From Chloroflexota bacterium (GTDB taxonomy: Bacteria; Chloroflexota; Dehalococcoidia; E44-bin15): a stretch of 51,056 nt of DNA. Of this stretch, positions 3,367-23,194 are shown piece by piece (position 1 is the first letter of the stretch; every line of letters starts with the position of its first letter). Under the pieces are notes generated by a model that saw nothing but the letters and a program-made list of their open reading frames with translations, searched no databases and was not told the DNA's origin. The translations under genes were made by a program, and so were the position numbers. The DNA is taken from the NCBI GenBank assembly GCA_030626475.1, contig DAOUOW010000003.1:1-51056 (forward strand), read 5' to 3'.

Positions 3367-3666
3367 TTAGTCCCTTACCCCCACCCCTCCGGTCTTGCGG
3401 ATATGAGTTGGGGTAAACGGTAATAAGGCAAGATGCCGCGCCCTCTTCACCGCCACCGCTAACGCCCGCTGGTGCTTGGCACAGGTGCCCGTCCTGCGCC
3501 GAGGCTCGATCTTCCCCCGATCTGAGATATAGCGGCGCAACTGCGAAGGTTCCTTATAATCGATAATATCAACCTTAGCCACACAGAAGGCGCACACCCT
3601 GCGCTTGGGTATATATCTCCTGCCCCCGCCTCTAACTTTTCTCGGCTTTCCCCGCTTTATAGGCAT
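3367..3666 (-). CDS. rpsR: 30S ribosomal protein S18
   Basis: [30 protein letters not shown]; rpsF-ssb-rpsR order. Confidence 0.97.
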
Positions 3667-3728
3667 TTTTCGATGCTATCCGCCTTGCTTCTAAATTTCG
3701 ACTTCGCCCCCCACGGTGTCCAACCGTC

Positions 3729-4146
3729 TTAGAATGGGAGCTCCTCAGGCTCGACCTCCCCCTCTACACCCTCCTCAGGAAGAGGAGCAGCCTCTTCAGG
3801 AAGGGGAGCAGCCCCAGGGCGATCGAGGAAAATTACACGATTAGCCACAATCTCATTGGTAAAACGCCGCTGCCCATCCTGCCCCTCCCAGGTACGGGTT
3901 CTCAGCCTGCCCTCAACATAGGCCCGCCGACCTTTAGCTAGAAACTGATTGCAAGTCTCCGCCAGCCTTCTCCAGGCAACCACTCTGAACCACTCCGTCT
4001 CTTGCCTTCTTTCCCCTTCAGGGGTAGTGGATGTCCACGAGGTAGCAATAGAAAAAGTGGTTACCGGACTTCCGCTGGGGGGTAAAACGCATCTCAGGAT
4101 CGGTCCCAAGGTTGCCAATGACCATAACTTTGTTCAAACTCGCCAT
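3729..4146 (-). CDS. ssb: Single-stranded DNA-binding protein, split by a +1 frameshift in a C6 run at 4077-4082
   Basis: ATG at 4146 reads MASLNKVMVIGNLGTDPEMRFTP; removing one C rejoins it to SGSPVTTFSIAT...ETEWFRVVAW...VEGRLRTRTW...EELPF. Confidence 0.93.
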
Positions 4147-5935: not shown

Positions 5936-7069
5936 TCACTTCCTTGTCAACAACCCGATCTCGATGAGGGCCAGGAGCCCGCCAGAGACCAGGGAATGCC
6001 CGCCGAGGATGACCGGGATCGGGGCCCCCAGGGCTGCCTCGGTAAACTGGCGAACAAAGGGATTATCTATCTTCTCCGGCTGCCCCAGGTCGGAATAGAA
6101 GCGGTCAGGACGTGAGGGCTCAAGCCCGAAATGGGCAAAGATGACCCTGGAGTCGATAAAGGCGGCATCGCCGAGGCGAGCCAAGGTTTCAAAGAAGCGC
6201 TGAGGTGTTACCTGCTCCCAGTAGAAGCCGAGGATGGAACAAGCCTCGCCCCGCCGCTGGCGCTCATCGGCACGCAGGCTCCGCTCCTCAGCCAGCAGCC
6301 GCACCCGGCAAGCGGTCCCGGTCTCCATTTGCGACCAAACATGGCTGCCAACCCGCCCCGCCACCACGACCTGAGCATTCTCATCGTTGAAGCAGCTTAT
6401 CACTCGCTCCAGGCGAGAGGTATCGAGGTCTAGGCCCGCCACACAGGCTTGGGTGTAGCTGCCGACGCCGGGGTGCAGCTTGAGGATGAAGAGGTCAGCG
6501 GGGGTATCAATGTCAAACTGGTAAGCGGCGGTTCGAGGGAGGCAAACCTCTCTCAGGCCCGCCTGGCCGACCAGAAGCTGCGCCAGGGGATTATCTATAG
6601 CCGGGAGATCGATGTCCGCTATCGCTTTTCCCGGGGTGAAGGCGATGAGGTCGGCAGAGAAGATGTTGTTGGTGATCACCGTATTTGTCGCCGAGGATAG
6701 CTGCTGGGCGAGGGCACCAAGTTCACCGGAAGAGAGCAGGGGAACACTACCTCGGCCAATATAAAACGGCTTCTCAATCCCGTGCTTCTGGATAACCTGC
6801 TTCAGCTTTTGGCCAAAATGAAACGGGCCTGAGCTCTCCTCGACCACCACCGAGGGACCGAGCTCCTTGCCCAGCTCCTCCACATCGGTAACCAAGATCA
6901 CCCGTGAGAAGGCACCACTCTCCAGCGCCCGCTCTATGACGTCTCGGGCGATGGCACGGTGGGCAAAAGCGACCATCTCCTCCCCAGGGGTGCCGCCAAT
7001 GTCACCGAGGAAAAGGATGAGAGTGGGATCCGCTTTTATCCTGCCACCTCCGCCCCAGAATTGGTGCAC
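5936..7069 (-). CDS. Hypothetical protein with CofC/MobA-like nucleotidyltransferase-fold N-terminus
   Basis: FDIDTPADL motif resembling the DVDTxxDL of CofC/GT-A proteins; start uncertain. Confidence 0.5.
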   Translation of the reverse strand: MHQFWGGGGRIKADPTLILFLGDIGGTPGEEMVAFAHRAIARDVIERALESGAFSRVILVTDVEELGKELGPSVVVEESSGPFHFGQKLKQVIQKHGIEKPFYIGRGSVPLLSSGELGALAQQLSSATNTVITNNIFSADLIAFTPGKAIADIDLPAIDNPLAQLLVGQAGLREVCLPRTAAYQFDIDTPADLFILKLHPGVGSYTQACVAGLDLDTSRLERVISCFNDENAQVVVAGRVGSHVWSQMETGTACRVRLLAEERSLRADERQRRGEACSILGFYWEQVTPQRFFETLARLGDAAFIDSRVIFAHFGLEPSRPDRFYSDLGQPEKIDNPFVRQFTEAALGAPIPVILGGHSLVSGGLLALIEIGLLTRK

Positions 7070-15117: not shown

Positions 15118-18565
<3,448 letters not shown>

Positions 18566-18579
<14 letters not shown>

Positions 18580-20128
18580 TGCAGCAGATTAGTTGATTCA
18601 TCTCGTTATTCTGACCTTCGCAAAGCTGGTAGAAGCGGTTTCTTTGGACTGGGTTAAGCTTCTCGCATGCAAGCACAATTGCATACTGAATTTCCAACTG
18701 TGGCTCATCGTCATAGGATTCCATCAGGGCTCTCCTATCTTGGTCATCCCCATAGAGACCACAAATGCGAATTGCCTTGAACCTGCAAATCCAATGTCTA
18801 TTTTTGTCGTTGGCAATTCCTCTAACCACTTTCATGTCGCCTGCATCCAGTATTGCCTCGCCTTCGAATCTTTCCTTTGCTCGGATCAAATACTCTAAAG
18901 CCCACATCTCTGACCATTCGTAGATATTCTCTTCGCTGGCCAAGTAACCAATGAGAGCATCCTTTATCTTCTTGAAGTAGTTTGAAGTCCCTAAATAATT
19001 AACCAACAGCTTTGTCTCCGCAGGGCAATGCGGCAACCAATGCAACACCTCATCTTCTGCTACGGAGCTACCTAGTCTTGTTAAAAGGCCAATACAGTAC
19101 CTAAGCATCCTAGCATCATATTTGTCATCACTTCGAAAGACATGTTTCCGCAAATATTGGAGCAGCAATTCTTCAGACTTCTGTATATCCTCCACTGTGA
19201 CATCCTGTTCTTCAACTTGGACATCTCCTCCGTATTCGTAGTTAACTATTATGACTGGCGGCAGGGTTTTTGAAAATTCCTGAAGCCTGCTGTGTCTGTA
19301 ATCTACATACTTCTTGAGTTGAGTCCCATGGAGCAACAGGGTTTTCTCAGTCTGCAAATTGAGATGTAGGCTGCGTAACTCTACTGTCAAGTCCTTCAAG
19401 GCTCTATGGAGTTCTAACTTAGAATTGCCAAACACGCGAATATCGTCTCCATACCTGAAGTAGTCATGACCACGCCTCAGCATGTACTTGTCTAGAGGAT
19501 CCAGGTATATGTTTCCTAAGAAATCGCTGGGCCAAGTGCCTTGCGGCAGACCGTGGTACTTTGTGCCGTTCCAGGCAGTTATCACTTCCAATATGTTGTT
19601 CGTTGTCCCACTTTCTACACCGAAGCCGCTGAGTATAGCTGCCAACCTCCCCATATCTACGTGCTCAAAGTAGGCTGCTATGTCGGTCTCTAGCAGATAC
19701 CTCTCACCAGATTGTAGACCACTAAGGGTTCTTTCCTCAAACCTCTCGTAGCCGCCCAATTTGAATAGGTGTTCATCACCGTTCTTCTTCACTCTGTGAC
19801 TAAACACCACATTATCGCTATCTGGTATCAACTGGTCGCCGACTGTCTCAGCTATGCTATCAATCAAGGCCTGTAGCACTATCCTGTCCTTGAGCCTGGG
19901 GACGGCGCCGGGCCTTAGGGTGCGGTTCTGCTTGGGCACATCTATTCGCCTCACGAGGACGGGCTTATAATCATCCTCCATTTCAAATCTCAATTGTTCT
20001 AAGTTCTCTTCCCTCCTGTAGTCGAAGACCTCTTTCTCAATGGGATAGTGTATGAAGTCAGTTTTGAGGTCTTCCTTCAATCTCCTGTAAGCTAGATGCA
20101 AGTCAAGCAACTCGGCTGGTATCTTCAT
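18566..20128 (-). CDS. Standalone bacterial reverse transcriptase, UG/Abi-like, with C-terminal alpha-helical repeat region
   Basis: IDVPK..RTLRP, TDIAAYFEHV, GLPQGTWPSDFLGNIYL, FRYGDDIRVF; about 250 aa helical tail; AT-richer than flanks. Confidence 0.88.
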
Positions 20129-20175
20129 GACGCCCTCTTCTTAAGCAAAGTCACAATGAAGTTTCTTGTGAGAGG

Positions 20176-20204
20176 AACATACACCAAGATTTGCAGCTTG
20201 TCAA
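20176..20204 (-). promoter_or_regulatory. Promoter copy 1 (drives RT)
   Basis: TTGACA-AGCTGCAAATCTTGGTG-TATGTT. Confidence 0.75.
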
Positions 20205-20262
20205 TCTGCCCCCATCAGGTGGCGGGTCAGAGGTGCCCTAAAACCTCGCCCAGGCATAGGCA

Positions 20263-20291
20263 TTGACACACTGACGCCAAGTTGTTATATA
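20263..20291 (+). promoter_or_regulatory. Promoter of lipoprotein gene
   Basis: TTGACA-17-TATATA, then AGGAGGTGAT SD. Confidence 0.65.
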
Positions 20292-20320
20292 CTAAGCTCG
20301 CATTCGAGAAAGGAGGTGAT

Positions 20321-21268
20321 ATGAGGCGCAAAAAGCTGTTATTGGTTCTTGTTGGGGTCTTAGTCGCAAGTTTGGCAATCGTCGGTGTTAGTTGCGGCGG
20401 ATCGAAGGCTAAATTTGAGGTGTCAAATCTGGTCATCTCACCCGCTGAGGTGGGGTTCGAGCAGACGGTCACGGTCACCGCAGATGTGGAGAACGTAGGG
20501 GATAAGGAGGGTACCACTACTCTCGAGTTCAAAATCGATGACACTGTTGAGCATTCAGAGGAAGTGACCCTGGCAGAAGGGGAATCTGAGATGGTGACCT
20601 TCACCACCACAAGAGATGCTGAGGGTACGTACACCGTTGAGATCAACGGATTAACAGCAACCTTCACGGTTCAGGAAGGGGCACTCCCTACTCTGAATTT
20701 GGGAGACCGGTGGGTGTATACCATAACCACTGACGGACATCGTCATACATGGACTGAGGAAGTGACGGGGGAGGAAATGCTAGCCGGCAGGGATTGCTAT
20801 GTTGATGATGTTTCCATCGATCCACCTTTTGCGGGCATTGTGTCGAGCGCGAGAGGATGGTTTGAAAAAGAGACGCTTATGACACTCGGTCTTCAGATGT
20901 CAGGGGAGTTCATGGGATTTCCCTACGTAGTCTCCGAGGATACGTCCTACGAGGGACCACCCTTATTCCCGCTGGAGGTTGGCAAGCAGGTCGAGTCGAC
21001 TGTAACTAGTACGGTGACAATGACCATCATGGGCGAGACTGAAACTGAGACCGAAACGTCCTCCAGTACACTTGAAGTAGAGAAAATCGAAGACATCACC
21101 GTCACTGCTGGCACCTTTCGATGTTTCAAGATTGTCCGGTATGATGAGTACGGCACTGCCGTGTGGACTACGTGGTACTCAGACAAGGTGAAAAATAGCC
21201 GCGGCGTGAAGAGCATCGACAATGAGACCGGGGAAACCATGGAGCTTCAATCCTATTCAGTGCGGTAA
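20321..21268 (+). CDS. Putative lipoprotein with CARDB/Ig-like domain and C-terminal beta-rich domain
   Basis: Signal peptide ending VSC-GG; VTADVENVGDKEG CARDB pattern; EDITVTAGTFRCFKI; strong SD before ATG 20321. Confidence 0.75.
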   Translation: MRRKKLLLVLVGVLVASLAIVGVSCGGSKAKFEVSNLVISPAEVGFEQTVTVTADVENVGDKEGTTTLEFKIDDTVEHSEEVTLAEGESEMVTFTTTRDAEGTYTVEINGLTATFTVQEGALPTLNLGDRWVYTITTDGHRHTWTEEVTGEEMLAGRDCYVDDVSIDPPFAGIVSSARGWFEKETLMTLGLQMSGEFMGFPYVVSEDTSYEGPPLFPLEVGKQVESTVTSTVTMTIMGETETETETSSSTLEVEKIEDITVTAGTFRCFKIVRYDEYGTAVWTTWYSDKVKNSRGVKSIDNETGETMELQSYSVR

Positions 21269-21303
21269 TCGACCCTTTGGTGACAATGCGGCGGGGACTT
21301 ATG

Positions 21304-21364
21304 AGGTGGCAGATCAGAGATGTTCCTCCATGCTGCTGATCCGGGGGCAGTCGCTGATTTCCTG
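21304..21364. repeat. Junction repeat copy B
   Basis: Core GGGGCAGTCGCTGATTTCCTG at 21344-21364; CCATGCTGCTGA shared with copy C; left part 16/19 identical to 20217-20235. Confidence 0.85.
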
Positions 21365-21407
21365 TCCATGCCCCCTTTCTTTCTTCGACTTATGCGGTCT
21401 ACCAATC

Positions 21408-21839
21408 TTAAAATAGGCCTATTACCCTGCCAGCACTTTCTGCAATTGTGGCACATTGCTTCTTGTAACTCTCATCTAGGTATCCCTTTCCATGACCTAG
21501 CTGCAGGTCCTTTGAAACTATTGCATTGACCTCGTCCACCTCCACGTAGTGTCGACGTAAAGCATCTGGCAGTTCCCCGGGAAATTTGGAAGCTTCGTCC
21601 TTGTACTCCTTCCAAGCGTCGGTTGAGAGGGGCACCATTCTGCCGTCCCAGGGCTGCTTGGCCAGGTCTTGGTGACTCTGCACCTCCATTAGCAGACCCT
21701 GTTTAACCCCTTTTTGGCGGTCTCTTTCCGACTCTCTTCTTTGTCTCCTTACTAAAAGCAGATGAAAGAAGAAGCCGGCTATGAACCCAAATAGTGTGGT
21801 GAGAAAACAGGCCAGAATCACTTGTTGATACAGTTCCAT
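21408..21839 (-). CDS. Hypothetical single-TM protein (143 aa; start ATG 21839)
   Basis: Hydrophobic VILACFLTTLFGFIAGFFFHLLLV then RRQRR; lies downstream of promoter copy 2. Confidence 0.7.
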   Translation of the reverse strand: MELYQQVILACFLTTLFGFIAGFFFHLLLVRRQRRESERDRQKGVKQGLLMEVQSHQDLAKQPWDGRMVPLSTDAWKEYKDEASKFPGELPDALRRHYVEVDEVNAIVSKDLQLGHGKGYLDESYKKQCATIAESAGRVIGLF

Positions 21840-21912
21840 TGGTTGTGTTCTACTTTCCTTGCCCCGCTCTACGGCCTTATCTGCCAACCCGACATTGAAT
21901 TCTTGTGCGAGT

Positions 21913-21941
21913 AAAATACACCAAGGACCGCTGCTTGTCAA
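21913..21941 (-). promoter_or_regulatory. Promoter copy 2
   Basis: TTGACA-AGCAGCGGTCCTTGGTG-TATTTT. Confidence 0.72.
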
Positions 21942-22024
21942 CCATCCTTGAGAGCTTGAACTCTACGGGGCAGAGCAATCGGTCTTCTGGGGCTAATGGC
22001 CGCAGTAACTTATAAAGGGCAGTT

Positions 22025-22082
22025 TAGAGGTGCTTGTCCATGCTGCTGAACATGGGGCAGTCGCTGATTTCCTGATGCAAAT
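22025..22082. repeat. Junction repeat copy C
   Basis: 30 nt TGGGGCAGTCGCTGATTTCCTGATGCAAAT at 22053-22082 identical to 22382-22411. Confidence 0.9.
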
Positions 22083-22102
22083 TGTGGCGGTCTATATTGA
22101 GG

Positions 22103-22249
22103 CTACTGGCTTTTCTCCCTCTCTCGTCTCCACCACCACATGTGTAAATCCGACTGGCCGGGATGATGCCTTCTCCTCTTCCTTGCGAGGAAAGTCAGAT
22201 ACACTCCCTTTACGACTAGCGCAATTATTAGAATATACCACCAGTTCAA
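22103..22249 (-). CDS. Small 48-aa membrane peptide, not in ORF track
   Basis: GGAGG SD, TTG start: MNWWYILIIALVVKGVYLTFLARKRRRHHPGQSDLHMWWWRREREKSQ; TM helix then basic cluster; downstream of promoter copy 3. Confidence 0.6.
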   Translation of the reverse strand: MNWWYILIIALVVKGVYLTFLARKRRRHHPGQSDLHMWWWRREREKSQ

Positions 22250-22290
22250 CGTTTTCGCCCTCCAAATCCGTTCTAGTTCCTTGTACTGGG

Positions 22291-22319
22291 AGAATACACC
22301 AAGATTTGCTTCTTGTCAA
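22291..22319 (-). promoter_or_regulatory. Promoter copy 3
   Basis: TTGACA-AGAAGCAAATCTTGGTG-TATTCT. Confidence 0.75.
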
Positions 22320-22342
22320 CCATCCCCTACCCTGGGTGCCGT

Positions 22343-22411
22343 TTCAAAGATGCCCCACCACCTCCCCCGTGCTCCTGATCCTGGGGCAGTCGCTGATTTC
22401 CTGATGCAAAT
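22343..22411. repeat. Junction repeat copy D
   Basis: Core at 22383-22403; TCAAAGATGCCC left end resembles TCAGAGGTGCCC of copy A at 20227. Confidence 0.88.
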
Positions 22412-22450
22412 CGTCGTGGTCGATGGGCAGCGGCGCGATAAGCTAGAACG

Positions 22451-22479
22451 TTGACAAAGGGCGAGCAAGCTAGCATAAT
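22451..22479 (+). promoter_or_regulatory. Promoter of second CARDB gene
   Basis: TTGACA-17-CATAAT. Confidence 0.7.
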
Positions 22480-22507
22480 AAATCCTCGCCCGATAAAGGA
22501 AGAGGAT

Positions 22508-23194
22508 ATGAAGACCAAAAGGTTTATAATATTCAGGAATGTCTTCTTTATCCTCATGGCCCTGGTACTGGTTGGAGGCTTGACCGCGGGCTGGCGTGCC
22601 GCCACTCGCCCTTCCACGGCGGAGCTACGGGTGACGAACCTGGTCATCTCCCCAGCCGAGGTATACGTGGGAGAGCAGACCGCCATCTTCGCGGAGGTCA
22701 CCAACAACGGAGACTCAGACGACACCCATACGATAGTGTTGACGGTCAACAACAGCAACGGCCAAGAGGTAGAAAAAGGTGAGACGGAGGTCCCGGTGCC
22801 AGCAGGGAAGATGACAACGGTGGAGTTCGCCATCACTCTCAATATACCGGACACCTACAAAATCGAGGTCGATGGGTGGACGGGCACCCTGGAGGTAATG
22901 GAGCGGCCCACTGGCGCCGAGTTCCGAGTGATAGGCCTAGCCATTACCCCTCCCACAGTGGAAGTGGGGGAGATGGTAATTGTCAGCGCCACTATCGAGA
23001 ACATCGGACAGACAGACGGCACCTACATCCCAACATTAAAGATTGACGGCACGGAGATAGAGGAGAAGCCGGAGGTTCCAGTGGCAGCGGGGGGGACGGC
23101 AACAGTGGAATTTACCCTCGCTATCAATGTAGCGGGCACCTACGAAATCGAGGTCGATGGACAGAGGGACTTCCTGGAGGTGACCGCTCCCTAA
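22508..23194 (+). CDS. Secreted/membrane-anchored protein with two tandem CARDB/Ig-like domains (start ATG 22508)
   Basis: N-terminal hydrophobic helix; duplicated EVPV.AG...TVEF...N..GTY.IEVDG units. Confidence 0.72.
   Translation: MKTKRFIIFRNVFFILMALVLVGGLTAGWRAATRPSTAELRVTNLVISPAEVYVGEQTAIFAEVTNNGDSDDTHTIVLTVNNSNGQEVEKGETEVPVPAGKMTTVEFAITLNIPDTYKIEVDGWTGTLEVMERPTGAEFRVIGLAITPPTVEVGEMVIVSATIENIGQTDGTYIPTLKIDGTEIEEKPEVPVAAGGTATVEFTLAINVAGTYEIEVDGQRDFLEVTAP

Follow-up and report, generated by a model that had tools for sequence, protein, structure and literature searches.

Truncated ends of a HAD hydrolase gene and reused promoters form a cassette-like array in an uncultivated Dehalococcoidia bacterium

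Short genes that stand in a row, each preceded by the same junction and the same promoter, raise the question of whether they were captured one after another at a dedicated site. Such a row is found in the window analyzed here, a stretch of 51,056 nucleotides from the metagenome-assembled genome (MAG) of an uncultivated Chloroflexota bacterium of the Dehalococcoidia (assembly GCA_030626475.1, contig DAOUOW010000003.1), where it ends in a gene for a reverse transcriptase (RT). A preliminary description had proposed an integrase-less and possibly RT-linked cassette-acquisition system. We show that the junctions represent what remains of the 3' part of a HAD-family hydrolase gene, its last 8–30 codons and the stop, together with the promoter that follows this gene. 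With a probability of roughly 0.7, the array represents scars of duplication, deletion and flank recombination in a strain-variable hotspot of horizontal gene transfer (HGT), in which an RT of group UG21 is acquired cargo and no dedicated capture device is at work.

The repetitive layout itself is as first described. A 21-nt core (GGGGCAGTCGCTGATTTCCTG) occurs exactly at positions 21344, 22054 and 22383, where 0.01 matches would be expected by chance, junctions C and D have a run of 30 identical nucleotides in common, and junction A matches junction B at 16 of 19 positions. A 53-nt repeat with a sigma-70-like promoter (TTGACA-17-TATnnT) is present in three minus-strand copies, each with 10 of 12 consensus matches and each upstream of a different minus-strand gene, namely a 48-aa open reading frame (ORF; pep48), a 143-aa membrane protein (TM143) and the 520-aa RT. 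Read along the minus strand, the order is junction D, promoter, pep48, junction C, promoter, TM143, junction B, a lipoprotein gene in inverted orientation, a partial junction A, promoter and RT (Table 1). The cargo genes stop shortly before the next junction: pep48 ends 7 nt before tail C, and TM143 ends 5 nt before the degenerate HAD-like arm of B and 43 nt before the B core. Within the source MAG (1.12 Mb, 68% complete), core and promoter are confined to this locus, ruling out a dispersed repeat or miniature inverted-repeat transposable element (MITE), one of the alternatives that had been considered.

The junctions are explained by a gene that the source MAG no longer holds. In a genome of the same genus, G001 (contig C158, JADFVG010000039.1, "Chloroflexota bacterium C2.bin.45"), an intact gene for a 236-aa HAD-family hydrolase (Pfam Hydrolase, 9e-26) is found in the syntenic interval, which is delimited by mfd and the CARDB gene; the hydrolase gene diverges from CARDB and converges with mfd. 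The encoded protein ends in IDRDDLHPEISDCPRIRSLEEVVGYL (nucleotides CCGGAAATCAGCGACTGCCCCAGG). In the same frame, the minus strand of the window reads APLPIDHDDLHQEISDCPRIRSTGEVVGHL at D, IDRHNLHQEISDCPMFSSMDKHL at C, QEISDCPRISSMEEHL at B and LGEVLGHL at A, and all four junctions retain a stop codon at the homologous place, followed by ~20–45 nt of related post-stop sequence. Set beside the G001 HAD end, the in-frame reading of junction D is IDHDDLHQEISDCPRIRSTGEVVGHL and stop, and D has 85% nucleotide identity with the corresponding terminal part of the intact gene. Six full-length HAD genes (G001, L028, G004, G003, G018 and RBG_16_60_22) were taken, and an nhmmer profile was built from their 3' ends alone; it matched D with E=5.7e-24, C with 2e-9, B with 1.2e-8 and A, weakly, with 0.028. 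Since the tails match in frame and are recognized by a profile made of HAD genes only, the core can be assigned to the coding sequence of the HAD hydrolase, in which it encodes QEISDCP. The preliminary description had itself listed the 3' end of a known gene among the identities that would speak against a new acquisition system, and by this result the proposal largely fails.

The remnants begin at different places within the lost gene, at approximately codon -30 in D, -23 in B and C, -8 in A and, in G001, -12 in the second tail. Two GCAGCGG microhomologies border the deletion that removed the HAD body (~670 bp) at D; at A, the deletion extends from the lipoprotein promoter to codon -8 and is common to strain L046. 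The HAD gene is patchily distributed and present in 5 of 36 genomes. The junctions show no sign of a structured site: they have no inverted repeats, neither strand folds better than shuffled sequence (z from -0.3 to +1.2), and an attC-like hairpin, the absence of which had been noted from the start, is not present. A search against Rfam returned no family, the sole match being a chance snoRNA (E=0.44), and a structured RNA, an attC site or a non-coding RNA (ncRNA) for the RT are thereby ruled out as identities of the repeat. Integron arrays are similar in being linear rows of short, unrelated genes on the same strand separated by a recurring sequence. However, intI, attI and attC hairpins are missing here, the cassettes have their own promoters, and the recurring sequence is the remnant of a gene.

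Related genomes allow the region to be followed between conserved flanks. Synteny of the type ileS-trpB-CARDB/HAD...mfd is found across the order (G003, G018, G026, G004 and G001), and the genes that lie between these conserved flanks vary from one related genome to another, as is the case in HGT hotspots. Exact-core scans of metagenome and genome collections yielded 18 loci, mostly chance 19-mers; the informative ones are L028, L030, L039 (which equals G001) and L040/L027. In G001, the HAD gene is followed by a promoter (P2), Yip1, a second HAD tail, a promoter, three genes of unknown function (one weakly HEPN-like), a second mfd tail and a 47-aa transmembrane (TM) peptide. In G004 it is followed by P2 and a 655-aa GHKL-type ATPase, and in the metagenomic locus L028 by an inverted PspC gene, an A-like promoter and a GT2 glycosyltransferase. 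A further arrangement, here called methyltransferase (MTase) type, is found in L030 and 10 further contigs shown (of 12 with the MTase, from several samples, flanks 89–97% identical) and consists of tail D, promoter D, a 218-aa S-adenosylmethionine (SAM) MTase, TM143, junction B and the lipoprotein gene; in the MTase-type strain that was followed to tail A, this lipoprotein gene is carried by a single 2.3-kb contig only. An apparent 92-nt difference between L041 and L042 proved to be a scaffold gap of Ns and no variant.

The cargo varies between these strains while junction and promoter persist, in keeping with what had been anticipated, and in a descriptive sense the region is cassette-like. 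The window differs from the MTase-type strains by a segment of 409 nt (pep48, tail C and promoter C) that replaces ~820 nt with the MTase, so that pep48 occupies the place of this enzyme. Alignments between the two types break twice, directly past the -10 box (22264) and directly ahead of the TM143 ribosome-binding site (21854). Module C is absent from L030 and the 10 further contigs and is restricted to window-type strains. Across the versions compared (G001, G004, G006, L028 and the MTase-type strains), none of the junction-bearing loci contains an RT. Likewise, no integrase or recombinase was found in G001 and seven sister contigs, G004, G006, L028 or the MTase-type contigs, within the sequences covered by the collections. 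The window contig (C30) has no tyrosine recombinase either, the four PF00589 matches of the MAG being located on C51 and C26, in agreement with the early observation that no recombinase lies nearby.

The RT itself is readily classified. Its best PADLOC profile is RT_UG21 (E=9.4e-103), matched by residues 6–515 over profile positions 3–497 of 503, Pfam RVT_1 is recognized with 1.1e-13, and the translation contains a YGDD motif. UG21 belongs to the Class 1 UG/Abi RTs, which carry HEAT-like C-terminal repeats (Mestre et al. 2022, PMC9226505). The window enzyme resembles this group in its full-length profile match, its RT palm with YGDD, a predicted helical-repeat C-terminus, its stand-alone occurrence and a variable, defence-island-like context; it differs in that an associated ncRNA is not seen. 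Neither an RT-linked msr-msd ncRNA nor a pair of template and variable repeats (TR/VR) was found, and the RT profile is neither that of a retron nor that of a diversity-generating retroelement (DGR). Compared with DGRs and retrons, the repeats at this locus are HAD tails and promoters and not TR/VR pairs. Space for an RT ncRNA is not apparent, as the 5' untranslated region (UTR) measures ~45 nt and the 3' end overlaps mfd. No homologue of the RT was detected in the family or the order, and the best match in the class as a whole is 36% identical. The RT is best regarded as a stand-alone, horizontally acquired and probably defensive cargo behind promoter A.

These findings bear directly on the idea that the junction is a dedicated recombination site at which the RT captures genes, for example via complementary DNA. 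The varying cargo behind a persistent junction and promoter, the position of cargo directly after the conserved promoter and the location of the RT at the end of the array would all fit such a device. However, the junction is a gene remnant without structure, arrays with the same junction exist without an RT, the cargo genes appear to carry no signs of retro-processing, and junction B decays freely in L045. The enzyme, moreover, is an RT of the abortive-infection (Abi)/defence-associated RT (DRT) type, and to our knowledge no role in gene integration is known for UG21 RTs of this type. We regard RT-driven capture as very improbable. The RT plays no part in building the array, and the link between RT and junctions that had been put forward as speculation is contradicted both by the RT-free versions and by the lack of RT relatives in the family and order.

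How the copies arose can be read in part from their breakpoints. Module C and junction B of L046 can be aligned along 137 nt (score 96 compared with 17±2 for the null), and the alignment spans the upstream arm, core, tail and post-stop sequence and then runs on for ~30 nt within the lipoprotein gene, at its 3' end. B and C also begin at the same HAD codon, i.e., they have the same left breakpoint. Because module C holds a piece of the lipoprotein 3' end and the left breakpoint of B, it is a segmental copy of the boundary between B and the lipoprotein gene, fused to a promoter copy, and not an independently captured site. A second breakpoint is indicated by the comparison of the window with L046, which has the same left breakpoint at A and is identical at 39 of 39 positions up to the middle of tail A; beyond this point the two differ in the rest of the tail, in the post-stop sequence and in everything compared that follows. 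The switch from identity to divergence within the tail suggests that the RT-bearing segment starts at a crossover inside HAD tail A. At the opposite end, the alignments of mfd from G001, L028, G004 and G006 all end at ~18551–18555, and the window mfd has an altered and extended C-terminus (AMAGCSPPTYS before the stop, compared with AMARE, AMTGE and AMAKD in relatives). This private ending, set against those of the relatives, points to insertion of the RT segment as the event that would have rewritten the last mfd codons. The mfd gene overlaps the convergent RT stop by 14 nt, and a hairpin (18549–18566) lies in the overlap.

Decayed tandem duplication had been mentioned as an alternative to gene capture, and part of it holds, as the copies are decayed duplications, with C deriving from B. 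In its strict form, this explanation posits purely local tandem duplications that decayed in place, with strain differences arising from differential loss and no exchange between strains; the copying of C from B, the paralogous promoters and the loss of HAD bodies by microhomology deletion are compatible with it. The copies, however, are not one another's closest relatives. Tail A and promoter A are closest to L028, where the promoter stands ahead of the GT2 gene, and D is closest to G001 and L030, which argues for an origin of the copies in different lineages. The MTase, RT, GT2 and Yip1 genes are unrelated insertions and not losses from a common set, and the RT lacks relatives in the order. 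Furthermore, identity between the window and the MTase-type strains is mosaic, with 97% in CARDB2, 95–96% in TM143 and 81–88% in the lipoprotein gene. Together with the switch from 39 of 39 matches to divergence in tail A, the mosaic identity is, as judged from alignments, a probable sign of recombination in the flanks. An exclusively local history is therefore improbable, mosaicism and unrelated cargo being the points that contradict it.

A different origin of the junctions is conceivable through site-specific integration. In this case, elements with a tyrosine or serine integrase would have targeted the HAD 3' end with the core as attachment (att) site, and each element would have brought a surrogate gene tail, integrated serially and later lost its integrase, leaving att-flanked remnants comparable to cis-mobilizable elements (CIMEs). 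The literature describes tandem accretion and CIMEs at target-gene 3' ends (Pavlovic et al. 2004; Bellanger et al. 2011), and CIMEs that lack an integrase are likewise on record (reviewed in PMC5704250). The likeness is considerable: direct repeats of a gene 3' end bound unrelated blocks of cargo, each junction has its own divergent surrogate tail and stop, and B, C and D have exactly the same 21-nt core among arms that have diverged to 60–77% identity. The locus nevertheless differs from CIMEs in several respects. An integrase is found in none of the locus versions examined nor on the window contig, the blocks or "elements" measure merely 330–710 bp, and a promoter is present in each repeat. 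Junction A and the second tail of G001 are without a core. The strain-variable segments neither begin nor end at the core, as their breakpoints lie at 22264, at 21854 and, within tail A, on the 3' side of the core position. Module C contains a fragment of the neighbouring lipoprotein gene together with the breakpoint of B, as expected for a segmental copy. Junction B is present in all strains, and in L045 it has lost its core through a ~45-nt deletion (the 21-nt core and 24 further bases, at ~2180–2215) between G-rich microhomologies, with the surrounding gene order unchanged. Finally, the mfd tail is duplicated likewise (169 nt with 92% identity in G001 and 255 nt with 85% in G006), for which a second site specificity would have to be assumed. 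We consider decayed integrative elements, although the foremost of the rival explanations, an unlikely source of the array. The varying breakpoints, the lipoprotein piece in C, the position of variable segments away from the core and the core loss in L045 speak equally against serial gene capture at a conserved site, as it had been envisaged at the outset. The ssrA-linked tandem islands of Dehalococcoides, reportedly described by McMurdie et al. in 2011, are possibly an example of the same class.

The preferred explanation thus remains that of a hotspot with recombination scars. HGT hotspots without mobile-element genes that recombine at flanking core genes have been described (Oliveira, Touchon, Cury & Rocha 2017, PMC5635113). 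The present locus is similar in its variable content between the same flanks across strains and genera, its lack of mobile-element genes and the signs of recombination in its flanks. It differs in that the HAD flank is dispensable and reduced to tails, in that tail and promoter are duplicated three to four times so as to resemble an array, and in the very small size of the islet (~4 kb). An HGT hotspot with gene-tail scars belongs to a known class, and a new acquisition system is not supported.

From the junction identity, the strain variation, the breakpoints and the versions without RT or integrase, as observed above, we infer an order of events that would have involved RecA-type or illegitimate recombination. 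The ancestral locus would have had a HAD gene divergent from CARDB and convergent with mfd, with a strong promoter ~20 nt past the HAD stop driving the next gene. Two divergent alleles of this unit (a CARDB-type gene next to HAD, promoter and cargo) would now stand in tandem, the first comprising the lipoprotein gene, tail A, promoter A and the RT, the second CARDB2, tail D, promoter D and what follows. This is suggested by the lipoprotein and CARDB2 genes, which are paralogues and each adjoin a body-deleted HAD tail and promoter, and by G026, in which a lipoprotein-type gene holds the CARDB position. The HAD bodies would then have been deleted, at D between the GCAGCGG microhomologies, and similar microhomology deletions may also remove cargo. 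Pieces consisting of promoter and cargo and flanked by duplicated HAD tails (D to B) could have been added by single-crossover (Campbell-type) or unequal exchange within the tail; the additive events that duplicated tail and promoter were possibly single-crossover insertions of circularized fragments or unequal exchanges. Module C would be a further segmental copy of B that took along ~30 nt of the lipoprotein end and became fused to a promoter copy. Homologous recombination would have exchanged cargo between strains, with the HAD tail, the promoter, TM143 and the mfd tail serving as conserved flanks, and in the case of the RT the exchanged segment would extend from the crossover inside tail A to the last mfd codons. 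The promoter copies were probably retained because they express cargo.

Several observations weigh against this account. Junctions B, C and D do not differ at any position of the 21-nt core, although identity in the adjoining tail is only ~60–77%. Simple neutral decay would produce a less sharp contrast, and the pattern resembles the identical cores of att sites. It may instead be due to conservation of the EISDCP codons combined with strong codon bias, to gene conversion, or to crossovers that occur preferentially where the identical stretch is longest. Conservation is unusually high in the promoter cores, too, and extends to the spacer. The post-HAD promoter P2 (TGGACAATAGGTCTAGCGGTGCTATAAT) is identical at 28 of 28 positions between G001 (L012, ~6340–6375) and G004 (L013, ~1045–1080), which belong to two genera; the identity covers the 16-nt spacer, although it falls to ~76% in the HAD tail next to it and different genes lie downstream. 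Such a pattern points to recent transfer or to an operator located within the spacer, and the conservation of the promoters hints at selection on the module itself. In addition, the order of events is reconstructed from few genomes, and the repeats interrupt most of the related contigs, which are short. A rather doubtful extension would accommodate these points by taking HAD tail and promoter as a selected, portable "landing pad", i.e., a homology handle, with the core as preferred crossover, joined to a strong promoter. Short foreign DNA, perhaps arriving by transformation, could on this doubtful premise be inserted, stacked, swapped and expressed at once without a recombinase. If true, the landing pad would be an integrase-independent, homology-driven functional analogue of the integron platform in streamlined Dehalococcoidia.

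Table 1 Positions of the array components and flanking genes within the window.
Feature	Position	Strand	Remarks
mfd (transcription-repair coupling factor)	15118..18579	+	Conserved left flank; ORF, Pfam domains on the identical gene in L041
RT, group UG21	18566..20128	-	RT domain and, by group, HEAT-like helical C-terminus
Promoter copy A	20176..20204	-	TTGACA-17-TATGTT, ~45 nt upstream of the RT start
Junction A	20205..20255	-	Last 8 codons of HAD tail and stop (20227-20255), 22 nt post-stop
Putative promoter and lipoprotein gene	20263..21268	+	Gene 20321-21268, 315 aa, CARDB and DUF3108-like (Pfam)
Junction B	21269..21402	-	Post-stop 45 nt (21269-21313), HAD tail and stop (21314-21364), degenerate upstream arm (21365-21402)
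Core within junction B	21344-21364	-	Exact core match
TM143	21408..21839	-	Single-pass membrane protein, 143 aa, function unassigned, 92-96% conserved in MTase-type strains
Module C	21855..22102	-	HAD tail C and stop (22024-22095), B-like post-stop (21979-22023), lipoprotein 3'-end fragment (~21952-21978), promoter C (21913-21941), 5' UTR
pep48	22103..22249	-	Candidate 48-aa ORF, TTG start, GGAGG Shine-Dalgarno, TM helix then basic tail
Promoter copy D	22291..22319	-	TTGACA-17-TATTCT; ahead of pep48 here, of MTase-TM143 in other strains
Junction D	22320..22436	-	Post-stop (22320-22343), HAD tail and stop (22344-22436)
CARDB2 and promoter	22451..23194	+	Promoter 22451-22479, gene 22508-23194; conserved right flank

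The genes around the junctions add some detail. CARDB2 is divergent from HAD in the relatives and is followed by trpB and then ileS. Its two CARDB domains correspond to an internal duplication of 115 nt with 77% identity (22782–22896 vs. 23067–23181). The lipoprotein is 43% identical over 316 aa (tblastn) to the trpB-adjacent gene of G026, and a 33-nt repeat (D4) is common to the lipoprotein gene and CARDB2. The lipoprotein gene is a CARDB2 paralogue and the counterpart of the CARDB-type gene that stands beside HAD and trpB in G026. Its N-terminal part is strain-variable (window 20321–20675 vs. L046 2104–2235), with a signal peptide and CARDB domain in the window protein of 315 aa and a signal peptide and short Pro/Thr-rich linker in the L046 protein of 241 aa, a domain-level swap within cargo. 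On the plus strand just 3' of the lipoprotein gene, core and B-specific arm (21344–21385) can form GGGGGCA...TGCCCCC, followed by TTTCTTTCTT, a terminator-like hairpin with a 19-nt loop that is not conserved in L046. TM143 has no match in Pfam or PADLOC.

Tails of mfd also occur in unusual surroundings in the related genomes. In G001 (L012, that is G001:C158, 3096–3264 vs. 3623–3791), the last 169 nt of mfd and ~30 nt downstream are duplicated, and the two copies flank a 358-nt insert that codes for the 47-aa hydrophobic peptide on the opposite strand. Given this peptide and the 48-aa TM peptide of the window, one may ask whether the scars carry small membrane peptides, possibly ones that resemble type I toxins. 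In G006 (L014, which is C80 142–380, and L088, which is C158 2516–2768), a degenerate HAD tail with an in-frame stop stands head-to-head with a copy of the mfd tail comprising the last ~53 codons, followed by an ABC-transporter operon, and the real mfd is located on another contig. This fusion is the junction expected from a circularized or tandemly duplicated segment reaching from mfd tail to HAD tail. In the window, the post-stop sequences of B (21269–21313) and A (20205–20226) weakly resemble the antisense of an internal stretch of the mfd tail, GGCGGGGACAAATCAGGTGCGG; they match the same mfd position at 16 of 19 and 11 of 12 nucleotides, respectively (shuffle p ~0.01–0.03). The resemblance may be the trace of an old fusion of HAD tail and mfd tail, or it may be due to chance.

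The main value of this analysis is corrective, as an apparent integrase-less, RT-linked cassette system is revealed to be a recombination hotspot with truncated gene tails and copies of a promoter. Turnover of this kind leaves gene-tail repeats that are able to mimic att or cassette sites. On a small scale, the locus cleanly illustrates the exchange of accessory genes, among them a candidate defence RT, between strains of an uncultivated Dehalococcoidia lineage immediately behind a reused promoter, and it flags the UG21 RT and several small genes of unknown function as strain-specific cargo and as candidates for a role in phage defence.

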